In this document: positions 3,285 through 16,467 of the stretch, piece by piece
Layout: each line of letters opens with the position of its first letter
Position numbering within the stretch: position 1 is the stretch's first letter
Source of the DNA: a virus
Lineage: Duplodnaviria; Heunggongvirae; Uroviricota; Caudoviricetes
Strand: one strand, 5' to 3'
Length of the DNA: 20,048 nucleotides
Virus record (IMG/VR): IMGVR_UViG_2671180847_000011
Notes under the pieces: model-generated
What the model was told of the DNA's origin: nothing
Database searches by the model: none
The model's input: only the letters and a program-made list of their open reading frames with translations
Translations under genes and position numbers: made by a program

Positions 3285-3668
3285 TCAGAATGGGATGGAA
3301 TCGTCGTATACAGGAGTGTTCTGCTGGTTACTACTTTGCTGCTGCGGGCCATTTCCTGAAGCTGCAAATCCAATCTTTGCATTCAGTAATTCAAGAGTGA
3401 TTGATTGACCATTTTGCCCCTGATAAACATCAACCCTGATGTTTTCTCCGGTAATTTCCACAATGCCACCTTCAACAAGAACACTACGGTAGTAATCCGC
3501 TTGCGCTCCCGGCTTGGCAAATACAACGGCGCTGTAGTTTGTCCATTCTTTCTTTTTTGTCTGGCGATCGTAATACTGAACGCCAGCACGGATGTTGAAT
3601 CCGATATTTTCCCCGGCCTGAAACTCTCTTGCGGGCTTGTTTAGTCTTACAGTAATCGAATGTGCCAT
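3285..3668 (-). CDS. ssb: Single-stranded DNA-binding protein-like, 127 aa
   Basis: Gly/Gln-rich tail ending in the SSB acidic tip ...PVYDDSIPF; start ATG at 3668 shares a base with the erf stop (TAATG). The track ORF extends further (to 3758) but overlaps erf. Confidence 0.65.
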   Translation of the reverse strand: MAHSITVRLNKPAREFQAGENIGFNIRAGVQYYDRQTKKKEWTNYSAVVFAKPGAQADYYRSVLVEGGIVEITGENIRVDVYQGQNGQSITLELLNAKIGFAASGNGPQQQSSNQQNTPVYDDSIPF

Positions 3669-4273
3669 TAAGCAGCCGCTCCTTCTAATTCGTCTCGTCT
3701 GATGTTGTAAACGTCCTGCGCTTTGTGCTGCTCCGGTGTGCCTTCGAGCATCTTCCACGCTTTGGCGAACGCCTGTTTAAGCTCTTCTACGGTGTTTTTC
3801 TGCATTGCTGCGTCAGTGAATGCTTTTAGAACCTGTTCAGGTGTAGGTGATGGTTTTGATTGCTTTGCTGCTGCGTTCTGCTGATGTTTATGCTCGTTTG
3901 TATCTGCATCTTTCGCATCATCAATGCCGAACAAACCATTGAGGCAATACTTGCGTGCATAAGAGCTTGTGGCTCCAGTAACTTGTGCAGAATCCATTCC
4001 TTTCTTGCTTTCTTCCTCTCGTGCAAGAGCGGTTGCCGTATGACTGTTTTCGCCATCGGTAATAGTTGCCGTGGCTTTCACGTAATACCGATCACCAATC
4101 AACACAACTTCATCGCTGATTGATAAAAACAGGCCATTCAGTAACGGCTTAACGCCTTCAAGAATGTCTTCGCAGCTTCTGTATTTATATTTACCGAATG
4201 AGTTGTACTGATTCTTTGGCGCGTTCAGATTCTCCTGAATAGCTGCCAGTCTTGCGTAAAATTCTTTGCTCAT
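3668..4273 (-). CDS. erf: Erf-family single-strand annealing protein, about 201 aa
   Basis: MSKEFYARLAAIQENLNAPKNQYNSFGKYKYRSCEDILEGVKPLL...ARKYCLNGLFGIDD closely matches my memory of P22 Erf; start set at the ATG at 4273 rather than the upstream TTG used by the track. Confidence 0.8.
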   Translation of the reverse strand: MSKEFYARLAAIQENLNAPKNQYNSFGKYKYRSCEDILEGVKPLLNGLFLSISDEVVLIGDRYYVKATATITDGENSHTATALAREEESKKGMDSAQVTGATSSYARKYCLNGLFGIDDAKDADTNEHKHQQNAAAKQSKPSPTPEQVLKAFTDAAMQKNTVEELKQAFAKAWKMLEGTPEQHKAQDVYNIRRDELEGAAA

Positions 4274-4283
4274 ATGATTGTTC

Positions 4284-4454
4284 TCAGAACGGACACGGCC
4301 CAAGGAAATAACGCTGATTTAATACTTCAGTCTTTGCCGCATTTAAAAATACGCGAACACCTTCACGATCTCCCTTCTGGCGATACATTAACGCCTGCTG
4401 CGTGTACATGCGTCTCTGTAACTTGCTCTCCTTCACTGTGGTTGCAAGTGACAT
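4284..4454 (-). CDS. Small hypothetical protein, 56 aa
   Basis: My own translation (MSLATTVKESKLQRRMYTQQ...); ATG at 4454 is preceded by AGGAG at 6-nt spacing. Overlaps the next ORF (4363-4533) in another frame, so one of the two is doubtful. Confidence 0.3.
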   Translation of the reverse strand: MSLATTVKESKLQRRMYTQQALMYRQKGDREGVRVFLNAAKTEVLNQRYFLGPCPF

Positions 4455-4533
4455 GAATATCTCCTTCGTTACCGATTAATTCTTTCATCTGACGAATGAA
4501 TTCTTCGTCTGACCAGTTATCCGTAAAACTCAT
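4363..4533 (-). CDS. Small acidic hypothetical protein, 56 aa
   Basis: MSFTDNWSDEEFIRQMKELIGNEGDIH...; ATG at 4533 overlaps the stop of the upstream small gene (ATGA). The C-terminal half overlaps ORF 4284-4454. Confidence 0.3.
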   Translation of the reverse strand: MSFTDNWSDEEFIRQMKELIGNEGDIHVTCNHSEGEQVTETHVHAAGVNVSPEGRS

Positions 4534-4682
4534 TTCCTGCGATACCACGGAAGGTTGATAGCTGATTTCATCGCTTTATTTGCTTCAAGCCACATTTTTG
4601 AATCACCAATAAATCGGGCTATTACTGCTTTGTTCTGTGCAGCACGAAGCATCTGGTGATTGATGGCTATTTCATTGCGCAT
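4530..4682 (-). CDS. Small protein in the kil position, 50 aa
   Basis: My own translation (MRNEIAINHQMLRAAQNKAVIARFIGDSKMWLEANK...); GAGG RBS 7 nt upstream; directly downstream of cIII, where lambda carries kil. Family not verified. Confidence 0.4.
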   Translation of the reverse strand: MRNEIAINHQMLRAAQNKAVIARFIGDSKMWLEANKAMKSAINLPWYRRK

Positions 4683-4798
4683 AATAAGACCTCAAATCTT
4701 TTCCATCCGTCACGTAATTTACGGGTGATTCGTTCAAGTAAAGATTCATTTAATTGGAAGGCACCCATGCGAGCGCCTCCCGCGATTGCGTAAATCAT
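4667..4798 (-). CDS. cIII: CIII-like protein (FtsH inhibitor), 43 aa
   Basis: My own translation MIYAIAGGARMGAFQLNESLLERITRKLRDGWKRFEVLLCAMK contains the conserved CIII core ESLLERITRKLRDGWKR; AAGGAA RBS 6 nt upstream of ATG 4798. Confidence 0.7.
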   Translation of the reverse strand: MIYAIAGGARMGAFQLNESLLERITRKLRDGWKRFEVLLCAMK

Positions 4799-4822: not shown

Positions 4823-5791
4823 TTAGTAGGTTATTTTTGTTGCGAATACTTCGCCTTTTACGATGGCTGTTATGATATTTTTAGCAACATCTTCTGATGC
4901 GCCAACCTTGATAAGGTCAGCAAGTATTTTGTTATTTACTTCTTTCCGGTGAGCTTTATCCTTTGCTCTACGCTCTTCTTCGTCCTTGATTCTTTTTTCT
5001 TCTGCTATTCTGGCTTGCTCTTTTGCTTCAGCCTCGCGCCGGATTCGTTCAGCCTCCTCCTGTGCTTTTCGGCGTTCTGCTTCAATTGCCGCCTGCTTTT
5101 CTCTTTCAGCTCGTTCTGCTGCCTCTTTTGCTTCGCGCTGTGCTCGTTGCTCGGCTTCAATGCGTTCACGCTCTGCACGTTCCGCTGCGGCCTTAGCTTC
5201 TGCTTCTCGCCTTGCTGCTGCTTCAATTTCGGCTTTTGCCTTTGCTTCGGCTTCAGATCTGGCTTTCTCTTCAGCTTCTCTTTTTAAGCGTTCTTCATGC
5301 TCTCGCTTTTCCTGCTCCGCTTTGAGTCTTGCCTCTTCTCTTTGGCGGTCAAATTCGCGATCCATCAAAATCGCTATTTCATGGTCAGACTCAATTTGCT
5401 TTGCGAGAGCTTCAGCTGCTGCCTTAGCTTCTTCTTCGGCTTTAATCCGCGCCTGCTCCTCCTCATAATCAGTAAGAGGCTGGCGCGCCTTGGCTTTCAG
5501 TTCATCAAGGCGATCACGCACTGTCTTGCGGTTGGCATCAATTAGCTTTGGAATTTCCTTAAGTTCAGCAACAAGGTCTTTGCCAAGACCATCGAGATAT
5601 GTTTTCGTCTGCGCAACTTTATACGCCAGAGAAGCGATCTCCTTTCTGCCCTTTGCCGTTGTGATATCAGGCACAAAGGACATAACTTCACGTTCAACCT
5701 TTTGAAGGATTTCTTCAATCTGGTCGGCAGACTGAAATACAGTCATTGCATTTGCTTTTTCAATAACAACTAAATCTGTTACTTCACTCAT
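4823..5791 (-). CDS. Hypothetical protein with a long E/A/K/R-rich repeat region, 322 aa
   Basis: Globular N- and C-terminal parts flank about 150 residues of EAKAKAEIEAAARREAEAK-type repeats; GGAGGA RBS immediately upstream of the ATG. Confidence 0.65.
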   Translation of the reverse strand: MSEVTDLVVIEKANAMTVFQSADQIEEILQKVEREVMSFVPDITTAKGRKEIASLAYKVAQTKTYLDGLGKDLVAELKEIPKLIDANRKTVRDRLDELKAKARQPLTDYEEEQARIKAEEEAKAAAEALAKQIESDHEIAILMDREFDRQREEARLKAEQEKREHEERLKREAEEKARSEAEAKAKAEIEAAARREAEAKAAAERAERERIEAEQRAQREAKEAAERAEREKQAAIEAERRKAQEEAERIRREAEAKEQARIAEEKRIKDEEERRAKDKAHRKEVNNKILADLIKVGASEDVAKNIITAIVKGEVFATKITY

Positions 5792-6285: not shown

Positions 6286-6909
6286 CTATGCGACCTCGGA
6301 AGGAAGTCCAATCATCTTATTCAAATCTTCTACCCGTAAAGCAGGAAGTGCTGTACTTGCTTTATCTGCTTCTTTTGGTAGCAATTCTTTGCTTTCAGGC
6401 CAAACTTCAATAAGTCGCTTAACTGTTGTGACTGAGTTCAAAGCAGCCCATACATTTGATTCGATATCCTTTTTCTTGGCTTCAAGTTTTTGTTGCAATG
6501 CGCAGATTTCATCAAACCTTTTTGTTATTTCGTGTTCTGCGTCAAACATGCATTTATCTTTTTCTGGGGTGGGGAGCAATATATCTTCACCGTTGCCGTC
6601 TTTTCCGTATGAATGCCAGCCAACCCTTCTTCCAGATACAGTCAGATAAATCGAAGTAGAACGAACATCGCATGAGTAAAATGAACATCCCATCTTCTCA
6701 AGTTCTTCACTTATAGCTGCTAACTTGGATGATAACCGATCCACTTCCTCAGTTTTCTTTTTACCGCCAAACGCAATAACTCTGGCGTCAAGTGCAAGCT
6801 GGTTCTTTAACTTTGTTACTTCTTCAAGTTCAGTGAAAACCCCAGACTTAATTAAAGCGTTACGAGCGATTTCCTCTTTCATTCTCGTAGTTAAGCGGAT
6901 TGATGACAT
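6286..6909 (-). CDS. Hypothetical protein, about 207 aa
   Basis: Start set at the internal ATG at 6909 (MSSIRLTTRMKEE...), which has a GAGAGGAA RBS; the track ORF begins earlier at 6969. No recognisable family. Confidence 0.55.
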   Translation of the reverse strand: MSSIRLTTRMKEEIARNALIKSGVFTELEEVTKLKNQLALDARVIAFGGKKKTEEVDRLSSKLAAISEELEKMGCSFYSCDVRSTSIYLTVSGRRVGWHSYGKDGNGEDILLPTPEKDKCMFDAEHEITKRFDEICALQQKLEAKKKDIESNVWAALNSVTTVKRLIEVWPESKELLPKEADKASTALPALRVEDLNKMIGLPSEVA

Positions 6910-7045: not shown

Positions 7046-7384
7046 CTATGACCATTTTTTATTTGGATTTCGTTGGTGAGCGTGATTAACAACTCTGTGC
7101 ATTACATCCTCATATTTTTCATCTTCAATTTTTTCGACATCGCGAGGAAATGGTGTTGCTAATGCTTTGTCAACTTTGTCCATTGGTTCTTCATTAATCT
7201 TATATTCAGGGCCATCATCTATAGCATTAAATCCAGGTGTTACACCGTTTTTTAATGCATATGCTATCCTTTTTTCCCATCTCGCTATTCTCCTCCTGTC
7301 TCGAGATGTAAGACCTCTATCAGATACTTTTCTGTTTTGTCCGCGGTCAGGATTAACATAAATAGTCTTTTTCACCATAAGCAT
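7046..7384 (-). CDS. Hypothetical basic protein, about 113 aa
   Basis: ORF immediately downstream of N; start uncertain (ATG at 7384 or 7378; the track uses a TTG at 7390). Confidence 0.5.
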   Translation of the reverse strand: MLMVKKTIYVNPDRGQNRKVSDRGLTSRDRRRIARWEKRIAYALKNGVTPGFNAIDDGPEYKINEEPMDKVDKALATPFPRDVEKIEDEKYEDVMHRVVNHAHQRNPNKKWS

Positions 7385-7386
7385 AC

Positions 7387-7692
7387 TCAATAAGCACCGT
7401 ACGGTAGTTTACTGTACAATTTTATTTTTTGGACTGCATGTATTTTGTTTCCTAATGGGTTTGAATCTTTGTAATAAATACTTCTATTTTTTCGAACGAC
7501 TTCTTCTTTCTTCTTGCAGCAAAGGCTTCCTAGCGATGCCGCTTTGTCTGCTCTGACGCAACCAGAGAGCTTTAGCGCAATTTTTCTCGCCAGTGCTTCA
7601 TTACTGCGTCGCTCGGCAATAAGTTCTGCTCTGCGAGCTTTGTAGCGGCTTTTTGCCGTACCTTTGGATTCTTTCCAGACAATGGTTACCAT
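7387..7692 (-). CDS. N: N-type transcription antiterminator with phage-21-type arginine-rich motif
   Basis: Contains GTAKSRYKARRAELIAERR, matching the phage 21 N boxB-binding motif as I remember it; first gene after pL/nutL; start taken at MVTIVWKESK (ATG 7692). Confidence 0.75.
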   Translation of the reverse strand: MVTIVWKESKGTAKSRYKARRAELIAERRSNEALARKIALKLSGCVRADKAASLGSLCCKKKEEVVRKNRSIYYKDSNPLGNKIHAVQKIKLYSKLPYGAY

Positions 7693-7802
7693 GATGGTCT
7701 CCTTTAAGTGGCTTTGGCGCATGACGCGTCGAGGTGCTTATCTTCTCGATCGCTGTCTTGCAGCTGCAATTCGCGCCATCCCCAAAACCACTCAAGTTCT
7801 GG

Positions 7803-9038: not shown

Positions 9039-9335
9039 ATGGCACAAGCAAGCTACAGCAAGCCAACACAGCGAGAAATTGATCGCGCTGAAACTGATTT
9101 ACTCATCAACCTGTCAACGCTTACCCAGCGCGGTCTGGCAAAGATGATTGGCTGTCATGAATCGAAGATAAGCAGAACGGACTGGAGATTTATTGCTTCG
9201 GTCTTGTGTGCTTTCGGAATGGCATCAGACATCAGTCCGATTAGCAGGGCTTTTAAGTATGCGCTTGATGAAATCACAAAGAAAAAATCCCCGGCCGCCA
9301 CCGAGGATTTTAAGCAAATTGATATGCAATTCTGA
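9039..9335 (+). CDS. cII: CII-like transcriptional activator (P22 C1-like), 98 aa
   Basis: Homologous to lambda CII in my recollection, including the C-terminal [18 protein letters not shown] (lambda: KKRPAATERSEQIQMEF); sits after cro/nutR. Confidence 0.8.
9048..9061 (-). promoter_or_regulatory. CII-binding direct repeat TTGC-N6-TTGC (pRE-like)
   Basis: Minus strand reads TTGCtgtagcTTGC inside the 5' end of cII, the same location and orientation as lambda pRE. Confidence 0.45.
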
Positions 9336-16311: not shown

Positions 16312-16386
16312 GGGTCAGTCGTATAAAGGTCATTACGGAAGGCTGTTAACCTTCTTATCGTGGTTCGAGTCCACGCTGTCCCGCCA
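16312..16386 (+). tRNA. tRNA-like gene, anticodon GUU (Asn) by manual fold, 75 nt
   Basis: Acceptor gggtcag/ctgtccc (one T-T mismatch), anticodon stem gaagg/ccttc with loop ctGTTaa, T arm cgtgg-TTCGAGT-ccacg, 3' GCCA. The D arm pairs poorly, so it may be degenerate. Confidence 0.45.
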
Positions 16387-16391
16387 AACAT

Positions 16392-16467
16392 GCTGGTTTA
16401 GCTCCAATGGTAGAGCAGTCGCCTTGTAAGCGAATGGGTAGCGGTTCAAGTCCGTTAACCAGCACCA
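16392..16467 (+). tRNA. tRNA-like gene, anticodon UGU (Thr) by manual fold, 76 nt
   Basis: Perfect 7-bp acceptor gctggtt/aaccagc, D stem gctc/gagc, anticodon loop ctTGTaa, T arm agcgg-TTCAAGT-ccgtt, discriminator A plus CCA. Confidence 0.6.

Follow-up and report, generated by a model that had tools for sequence, protein, structure and literature searches.

In phage lambda, the CIII peptide inhibits the host protease FtsH and stabilises CII, and Kil blocks assembly of the FtsZ ring and causes filamentation. On the lambda map kil is followed by gam-bet-exo, without the pair of small genes that is called 42.1 and 42 in HK022. The P22 map runs c3-kil-arf-erf-abc1-abc2, and its Arf (47 aa; PF17585; phrog_2445) has been defined genetically as stimulating Erf-dependent recombination and phage growth, as related where PMC12315714 cites Poteete et al. 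(1991). The molecular role of Arf itself is reported as not known (PMC12315714). In HK620, HkaM (NP_112046) was described by Hutinet et al. as an orphan without assigned function (PMC5928155).

Overlapping ORFs between kil and a recombinase gene have been annotated in HK022 (42.1 and 42), in Sf6 (genes 30 and 29, 'similar to HK97 42.1 and 42') and in mEp213 (mEp213_041 and mEp213_040). These three phages share with the stretch of 20,048 nt analysed here (the window) DNA of 94–99% identity, the order cIII-kil-42.1-42-recombinase and the two-frame overlap, which measures 92 nt or, in Sf6, 80 nt. Nothing substantive sets the window apart from them; it has the HK022-type gp42 allele (…QQALMYRQKGDREGVRVFLNAAKTEV…) and a 42.1 of 56 aa. 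Unlike the window, Sf6 carries the other gp42 allele, a 52-aa 42.1 and a Rad52-like recombinase. The four genes of the window are ordinary ones that have already been annotated in reference phages; the HK97/HK022 and Sf6 genome descriptions already included these ORFs in this order and with this overlap. The segment is probably the cIII-kil-42.1-42 block of an HK022/mEp213-like PL operon in which all four are genes, with 42 and 42.1 as probable recombination accessories.

Layout of the locus and the cIII and kil genes

The 20-kb window represents a lambdoid early region, from a prophage or a phage. Its early genes comprise an Ea22-like gene, abc2, a phage SSB gene (3285–3674), erf and then the four small genes, and it further encodes a 322-aa charged protein, an Nmad5-domain protein, Nun-like and N-like proteins, a cI-type repressor, cII (9039–9335; Pfam Phage_CII, 2.7e-33), O and a primase-helicase. 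The four small chained genes are located between the 322-aa gene and erf. The latter (4273..3668, minus strand, ATG at 4273) matches Pfam ERF at 1.5e-44 and specifies a P22-Erf-type single-strand annealing protein; the Erf annotation is also carried by mEp213, HK022 and HK97. The segment would belong to an N-antiterminated early-left (PL) operon transcribed leftward into erf-ssb-abc2, and all four small ORFs would be translated.

The first-pass annotation of this DNA had reported four small ORFs chained by overlaps, and all of them are present on the minus strand with their coordinates confirmed. As read from the sequence, cIII and kil overlap by 16 nt. A single ATGA holds both the kil stop and the 42.1 start, an overlap of 4 nt. 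Between 42.1 and 42 the overlap is 92 nt, and relative to 42.1 the reading frame of gene 42 is +1. A 10-nt spacer separates gene 42 from erf, with which it does not overlap. An Rfam scan of the whole window returned two tRNAs only, both far from this region, and NCBIfam gave zero matches for any of the five proteins examined.

Phage records each cover at most about half of the 20-kb window, as expected because the genome is mosaic. Over the 700 bp around the four genes, identity is 99% to mEp213, mEp043 and HK633 and 94–98% to HK544, CUS-3, Sf101 and Sf6. The 250-bp 42.1/42 segment is present in about a fifth of complete E. coli genomes (1105/5426). In public databases the exact gp42 protein occurs on at least 1000 contigs and the exact 42.1 protein on 166, both under labels such as 'hypothetical protein' or 'putative gp42.1'. 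The gene arrangement is conserved far beyond chance.

The 43-aa cIII product (4798..4667, minus strand), which contains ESLLERITRKLRDGWKR, is indeed absent from the ORF track, as had been remarked, because it is shorter than the usual ORF-length cut-off; it appears once the minimum length is set to 20 aa. An AAGGA is located 8 nt 5' of its ATG. The peptide matches Pfam Lambda_CIII (PF02061) over residues 2–35 (E = 6.4e-15; 55.4 bits against a cut-off of 25.7), is assigned to phrog_550 and is annotated as CIII in mEp213, HK022 and Sf6, so that it is predicted to be an FtsH-inhibitor and lysogeny-establishment peptide. The 50-aa kil product (4682..4530, minus strand) matches Pfam Lambda_Kil (PF06301) at E = 1.7e-20 (72.6 bits against a cut-off of 27.6) and phrog_2055 at 1.2e-35, and is annotated as Kil in mEp213, HK022 and HK97; a lambda-Kil-type septation (FtsZ) inhibitor is predicted. 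Like their lambda counterparts, both score well over the Pfam gathering cut-offs and hold the same early-left operon position, and they differ from them in being of the HK97/HK022 sequence type. cIII and kil would supply the well-known lysogeny and cell-division peptides.

It had also been proposed that kil-type genes lie at this position. For 4530–4682 the proposal stands (Lambda_Kil, 73 bits), and it does not extend to 42.1 and 42, which have no Kil match. Considering 42.1 and 42 as extra kil-type peptides that kill the host or inhibit its division would agree with their position adjoining kil in the early-left operon, with the small size of both products and with the frequent co-transfer of kil with recombination genes (PMC9836094). 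Such a role is nevertheless quite unlikely, since neither protein matches Lambda_Kil or any Kil PHROG, and gp42 tracks the recombinase gene and not kil, occurring also in loci that have no kil or a different type of it. By these profile matches, kil alone among the four genes is kil-type.

Gene 42.1 and the two-frame overlap

Gene 42.1 (4533..4363, minus strand) encodes 56 aa counted from its ATG; a GTG at 4548 is also in frame, and the ATG is the conserved start. The product matches phrog_2123 at 4e-40 over residues 1–52. Its conserved module is acidic and aromatic and spans residues 1 to about 22 (4533 to about 4468), taking the forms MSFTDNWSDEEFIRQMKELIG, MSIADTWSEDAFVRLMQDLIG, VSIADTWTDDAFIRLMKDLIS and MSFTDNWSDETFIRLMNEMLS across lineages, beyond which the sequences are unalignable. 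Residues 27–56, including the peptide HVTCNHSEGEQVTETHVHAAGVNVSPEGR, are a non-conserved tail encoded across the start of gene 42. AlphaFold2 predicts one helix (residues 9–20), with the remainder at a pLDDT of about 50.

The origin of the tail is illustrated by 80 viral contigs, in which the C-termini of 42.1 behind one identical kil protein give lengths of 56, 52 or 35 aa. The 56-aa form goes with an HK022-type gene 42 downstream, the 52-aa form with an Sf6-type gene 42, and the 35-aa form with a 102-aa gene and recT and no gene 42. Three types of C-terminus after the same kil place a mosaic joint inside 42.1, just past the conserved module.

Whether 42.1 is a gene at all may be asked, given that one of the two overlapping frames had been suspected of being spurious. 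On such a reading 42.1 would be a frame that happens to be open in the interval from kil to gene 42, and gp42 the sole gene. The 42.1 tail is indeed not conserved and open at chance level only, no Pfam or NCBIfam model matches 42.1, and the NCBI pipeline often leaves 42.1 uncalled, as in L182, where PGAP has no 42.1 annotation. Among E. coli prophages, the N-terminal region holds 13 non-synonymous (one nonsense) against 5 synonymous polymorphisms, and truncated copies occur in 2 of 80 loci; therefore, 42.1 may be dispensable or decaying in prophages. Against this stands the pattern of divergence over the N-terminal 20 codons, which is biased to third positions (differences at codon positions 1/2/3 of, e.g., 4/3/11, 5/4/11 and 5/1/10), with dN/dS at about 0.1–0.3 and synonymous sites near saturation in deep lineage comparisons. 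The start of 42.1 keeps its overlap with the stop of the preceding gene both after kil and after a cIII-like gene (ATGA; GTG in L096), the N-terminal part occurs in three different module contexts, heading a free-standing 35-aa gene without gene 42 in the RecT-type modules of Louie, HK140 and L085, and its sequence recalls the N-terminus of P22 Arf, which has been defined by genetics. A spurious 42.1 is accordingly improbable, and the divergence data indicate that 42.1 is a real gene, constrained at its N-terminus only.

The overlap between the 42.1 tail and the N-terminal helix of gene 42 (4454..4363, minus strand), put at about 90 nt in the first-pass annotation, measures 92 nt. Frame counts were taken from a kil-anchored sample of 80 viral loci, which is unbiased for the overlap and replaced 80 loci that had been chosen on 100% gp42 identity and were therefore biased. 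In this sample, 11 sites segregate within the overlap: 7 are synonymous and 4 non-synonymous in the gp42 frame, and the same 11 are all non-synonymous in the 42.1 frame (0 synonymous), none of them falling at the 42.1 wobble position. Register-preserving comparisons of the 26 codons of the overlap between the window and Sf6, an Enterobacter phage and a Pseudocitrobacter prophage gave 11–19/26 identical codons in the gp42 frame and 4–8/26 in the 42.1 frame. In L051, a natural C-to-T change turns codon 37 of 42.1 into a stop, and the gp42 protein is unaltered.

The 42.1 frame is open for 80–95 nt into gene 42. Synonymous-codon resampling placed this openness within chance, at P = 0.18 for the window and 0.12–0.42 for four other lineages, and in two loci without any 42.1 the same frame is open for 113 and 128 nt. 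Selection keeping the frame open was therefore rejected as an explanation, the lineages giving P = 0.12–0.42 and the loci that lack 42.1 being open longer still. These data indicate that inside the overlap selection and conservation are found only in the gp42 frame, and that the 42.1 tail is unconstrained and predicted to be disordered. Thus, the tail appears to be a read-through by-product ending at the first stop and not a selected second reading. Conservation of one frame only had been put forward as grounds for doubting the pair; it holds within the overlap, where the gp42 frame alone is conserved, and fails outside it, where the 42.1 N-terminus shows a coding signature. A terminator-like hairpin at the 42.1 stop (4367–4342) was considered as well, and is not conserved in Sf6-type loci, L087 or L096; it was taken to be lineage-specific or due to chance.

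Taken as a real gene, 42.1 would start by termination-reinitiation at the kil stop (ATGA), and selection on it would be limited to the first 22 or so residues and their one helix. Ribosomes translating 42.1 would continue across the ribosome-binding site and start of gene 42 and halt at the first out-of-frame stop, and the disordered tail, with its sequence and its length (35, 52 or 56 aa), would be a by-product of the downstream DNA. For annotation, the C-terminal 30 residues of 42.1 would be best marked as an unselected read-through tail.

The 90-nt overlap had also been taken to mean that either one ORF is spurious or there is a second frameshift. Neither is the case: the two genes have independent starts, each is found without the other, and there is no conserved slippery site. 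A programmed +1 (or −2) frameshift or a frameshift mutation, with a fusion of about 82 aa as functional product, draws on HK97, which has an 83-aa in-frame fusion of 42.1(1–43) and gp42(17–56), and on several fused proteins of 70–82 aa in databases. The HK97 form accounts for only one of the 80 kil-anchored loci, and the database proteins switch frame at differing residues, nearly all of them being clusters of one sequence that come from draft assemblies. In addition, five diverged lineages retain the two-frame layout, and no slippery or shift-prone motif common to their overlaps was found, and gp42 has an optimal ribosome-binding site and start of its own and lives without 42.1 in HK620, L084, L097, L098, L186 and L187. 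A frameshift is very unlikely on this evidence, and both ORFs should be retained, with no frameshift and no pseudogene call.

Gene 42 and its linkage to recombinase genes

Gene 42 (4454..4284, minus strand; 56 aa) is preceded by an AAGGAG Shine-Dalgarno sequence at 4466–4461 on the same strand, with a 6-nt spacer to its ATG; this AAGGAG lies within 42.1 codons 23–24. The product matches phrog_1723 at 4.5e-34 over residues 1–56, and no Pfam model matches it. In the non-overlapping part of the gene, 11 synonymous against 4 non-synonymous sites segregate in the Sf6-type group of the kil-anchored sample, a pattern of purifying selection. As judged from the sequence, gp42 is the product of a real gene with a near-ideal ribosome-binding site of its own, and gene 42 would initiate independently at this strong AAGGAG-N6-ATG. 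Near its start the RNA shows no evident structure (fold z-score −0.42), and at this value there is no support for a fold that masks the ribosome-binding site until translation of 42.1 opens it.

Homologues of gp42 are full-length (54–62 aa), with identity down to about 35–45%, and come from phages and prophages of Escherichia, Salmonella, Enterobacter, Pseudocitrobacter, Kluyvera and Yersinia. An exhaustive profile search of 1.84 billion cluster representatives gave 23 matches at E ≤ 0.001, of which about 17 are small proteins of the gp42 family; therefore, the family is small and narrow. Among 19 aligned members, F50, P55 and F56 do not vary. The family pattern is 54–62 aa, two helices and a C-terminus …F(L/I)(G/A)x1-5PF, to which gp42 conforms with the motif FLGxxPF. 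AlphaFold2 gives gp42 a confident helical hairpin (pLDDT 88.6; helices 7–27 and 30–49) with a less ordered C-terminal FLGPCPF. A fold search with this model against the PDB returned only generic helical hairpins (best E = 1.4), and among PDB sequences a profile search matched nothing but a designed repeat protein.

HkaM of HK620 belongs here: it matches phrog_1723 at 1.4e-31, is of the same size class, ends in …FL(G/A)…PF and lies directly 5' of the recombinase gene. It differs from gp42 in having about 35% identity and 62 aa, in following kil directly without 42.1, and in its partner, which is Sak4 and not Erf.

Wherever the downstream gene is readable (more than a dozen loci), gene 42 is directly 5' of a recombinase gene, often without 42.1. 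The partner is Erf in the window, HK022, L097, L098, L186, L187 and L188; a Rad52-like protein in Sf6, L084 and L182; and a Sak4/AAA_24 ATPase in HK620, L087, L096 and L184. Gene 42 occurs without 42.1 in HK620 (directly after kil), L084, L097, L098, L186 and L187. The gap to the recombinase gene is 10 nt in the window and 49 nt in L184, and it is 8–10 nt or replaced by an overlap in Sf6, HK022, L084, L087, L096, L097, L098, L186, L187 and HK620; the gene 42 stop codon is usually inside the ribosome-binding site of the recombinase gene. Gene 42 would be linked translationally to the recombinase gene across the 8–10-nt gap. The gp42/HkaM peptide is narrowly distributed and tied to three unrelated recombinase families.

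Possible relation to P22 Arf and candidate functions

Comparison with the kil-arf region of P22, which had been recommended, places gp42 in the 'arf position'. The slot is the same, with 42.1 and 42 between kil and erf in the PL operon as Arf is, and the N-terminus of 42.1 is weakly Arf-like: its first 23 or so residues align with the Arf N-terminus (WSDEEFI in the one, FSDEEFI in the other). The comparison fails for gp42, which has no significant similarity to Arf. An hhalign comparison of 42.1 with the P22 Arf family gave E = 3e-4 and a probability of 40% over the N-terminal 23 columns only, and PHROG cross-matches between 42.1 and Arf are reciprocal and weak (E = 0.007–0.05). A Klebsiella Arf homologue, MSAAEKWNDDEFIQLMSDAIG…, bridges the two and matches phrog_2123 at 0.007. 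Pfam Phage_Arf (PF17585) matched neither 42.1 nor gp42 nor the HK97 fusion even at E ≤ 10, the controls scoring 121 bits for P22 Arf and 52 bits for the Klebsiella homologue. From these similarities, 42.1 may be related to P22 Arf. The two differ in that the C-terminal half of Arf (…NLAAERQNP.I.WDEFAG) is not found in 42.1, and in that P22 has a single ORF and the window two overlapping ones.

A likeness between NLAAER and LNLARxE, together with the HK97 fusion, had prompted the notion that Arf consists of the 42.1 N-module and the gp42 C-terminus. For the C-terminal half of Arf this was rejected, since an hhalign comparison of gp42 and Arf reached E = 0.28 when 9 sequences were used and E = 0.49 when 19 were used.

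From conserved position and weak similarity, gene 42, and probably 42.1, would encode small peptides that assist or regulate the recombination module and are not host-killing. For HK620, sak4 and ssb alone reproduced the activity of the whole module, and HkaM was dispensable for SSB stimulation of Sak4 recombineering (PMC5928155); a direct annealing role is therefore unsupported by the only experiment available. Literature searches on HkaM and on SSB-tail mimics returned nothing beyond PMC5928155, and those for ribosome-profiling or proteomic data on the 42.1 and 42 ORFs found none in the papers covered. As cheap targets, 42.1 and gp42 lend themselves to genetic study in recombineering systems based on Erf, Sak4 and RecT, which are widely used.

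The tip of the SSB tail, …D(I/L)PF, docks bacterial and phage SSBs onto recombination and repair proteins. The flexible tails of the gp42 family all end in an invariant Pro-Phe-COOH (…FLGPCPF, …GEPPF, …SELPF) after the helical hairpin, and the Pro-Phe end recalls the …IPF tip of SSB tails. A gp42-family gene always comes before the recombinase gene, of whichever family, and is usually found near a phage ssb. It is conceivable, with a low probability in our estimate, that gp42/HkaM imitates the C-terminal tail of SSB or competes with it; if so, by blocking or redirecting the pocket in which a host protein, or the phage recombinase, binds that tail, gp42 would bias break processing to the phage pathway. 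The phage SSB of the window itself ends in …DDSIPF.

Genes 42.1 and 42 in one frame and in two

In the HK97 reference genome (NC_002167), unlike in HK022, Sf6 and the window, genes 42.1 and 42 share a single reading frame (1201-1452), which encodes an 83-aa fusion and has a second start nested in frame. Because HK97 is alone in this among the 80 viral loci sampled through kil, the fusion reflects either a frameshift specific to its lineage or an old error in sequencing. An Sf6-type cIII-kil-42.1-42 cluster, of a kind typical of enterobacterial phages, was also found on a 3.9-kb contig (JAFADF010000066.1) that is labeled 'MAG: Actinomycetes bacterium'. The contig is probably a binning contaminant.

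Within gene 42, the minus strand of the window holds a terminator-like hairpin followed by a T-run (4342-4367), located exactly at the stop codon of 42.1. This hairpin is not conserved among Sf6-type or more distant homologues. In the HK620 record, a terminator named 'tL2D' is annotated inside hkaM, at a place similar to that of the window hairpin. All members of the gp42/HkaM family end in Pro-Phe (for instance, GPCPF, GEPPF and SELPF; 4284-4304 on the minus strand of the window), and alignment of 19 sequences revealed F50, P55 and F56 as invariant.

Neighboring genes of the early-left operon

On the minus strand, the operon contains both an N-like antiterminator gene (7387-7722; phrog_271, 1e-31) and, immediately after it, a gene for a Nun-like transcription-termination (exclusion) factor (7046-7390; phrog_5632, 9e-71). 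A 207-aa protein encoded on the same strand (6286-6909) matches Pfam Nmad5 (2.7e-71), the nucleotide modification associated domain 5, and its gene lies upstream of that for a 322-aa protein (4823-5791, minus strand; phrog_1376). The latter has no match in Pfam, and its very long middle part, rich in E, A, K and R, presumably forms a coiled-coil. Homologues of the 322-aa protein are encoded directly before gp42 in a Kluyvera locus and in a further gp42 locus that lacks 42.1 (L186), and in a Klebsiella phage one is located ahead of kil/Arf-like genes.

After erf, a 129-aa protein (3285-3674, minus strand) was assigned to the PHROG SSB family phrog_44 (8e-28), while no match was found in Pfam. 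Its C-terminus, VYDDSIPF, resembles the tails of bacterial SSB proteins. The homologue in HK022 is annotated there as 'likely analog of P22 Abc1'.

tRNA genes of the late-regulatory region

In the late-regulatory region, the plus strand carries a tRNA gene for Asn(gtt) and, adjacent to it, one for Thr(tgt) (16312-16467).
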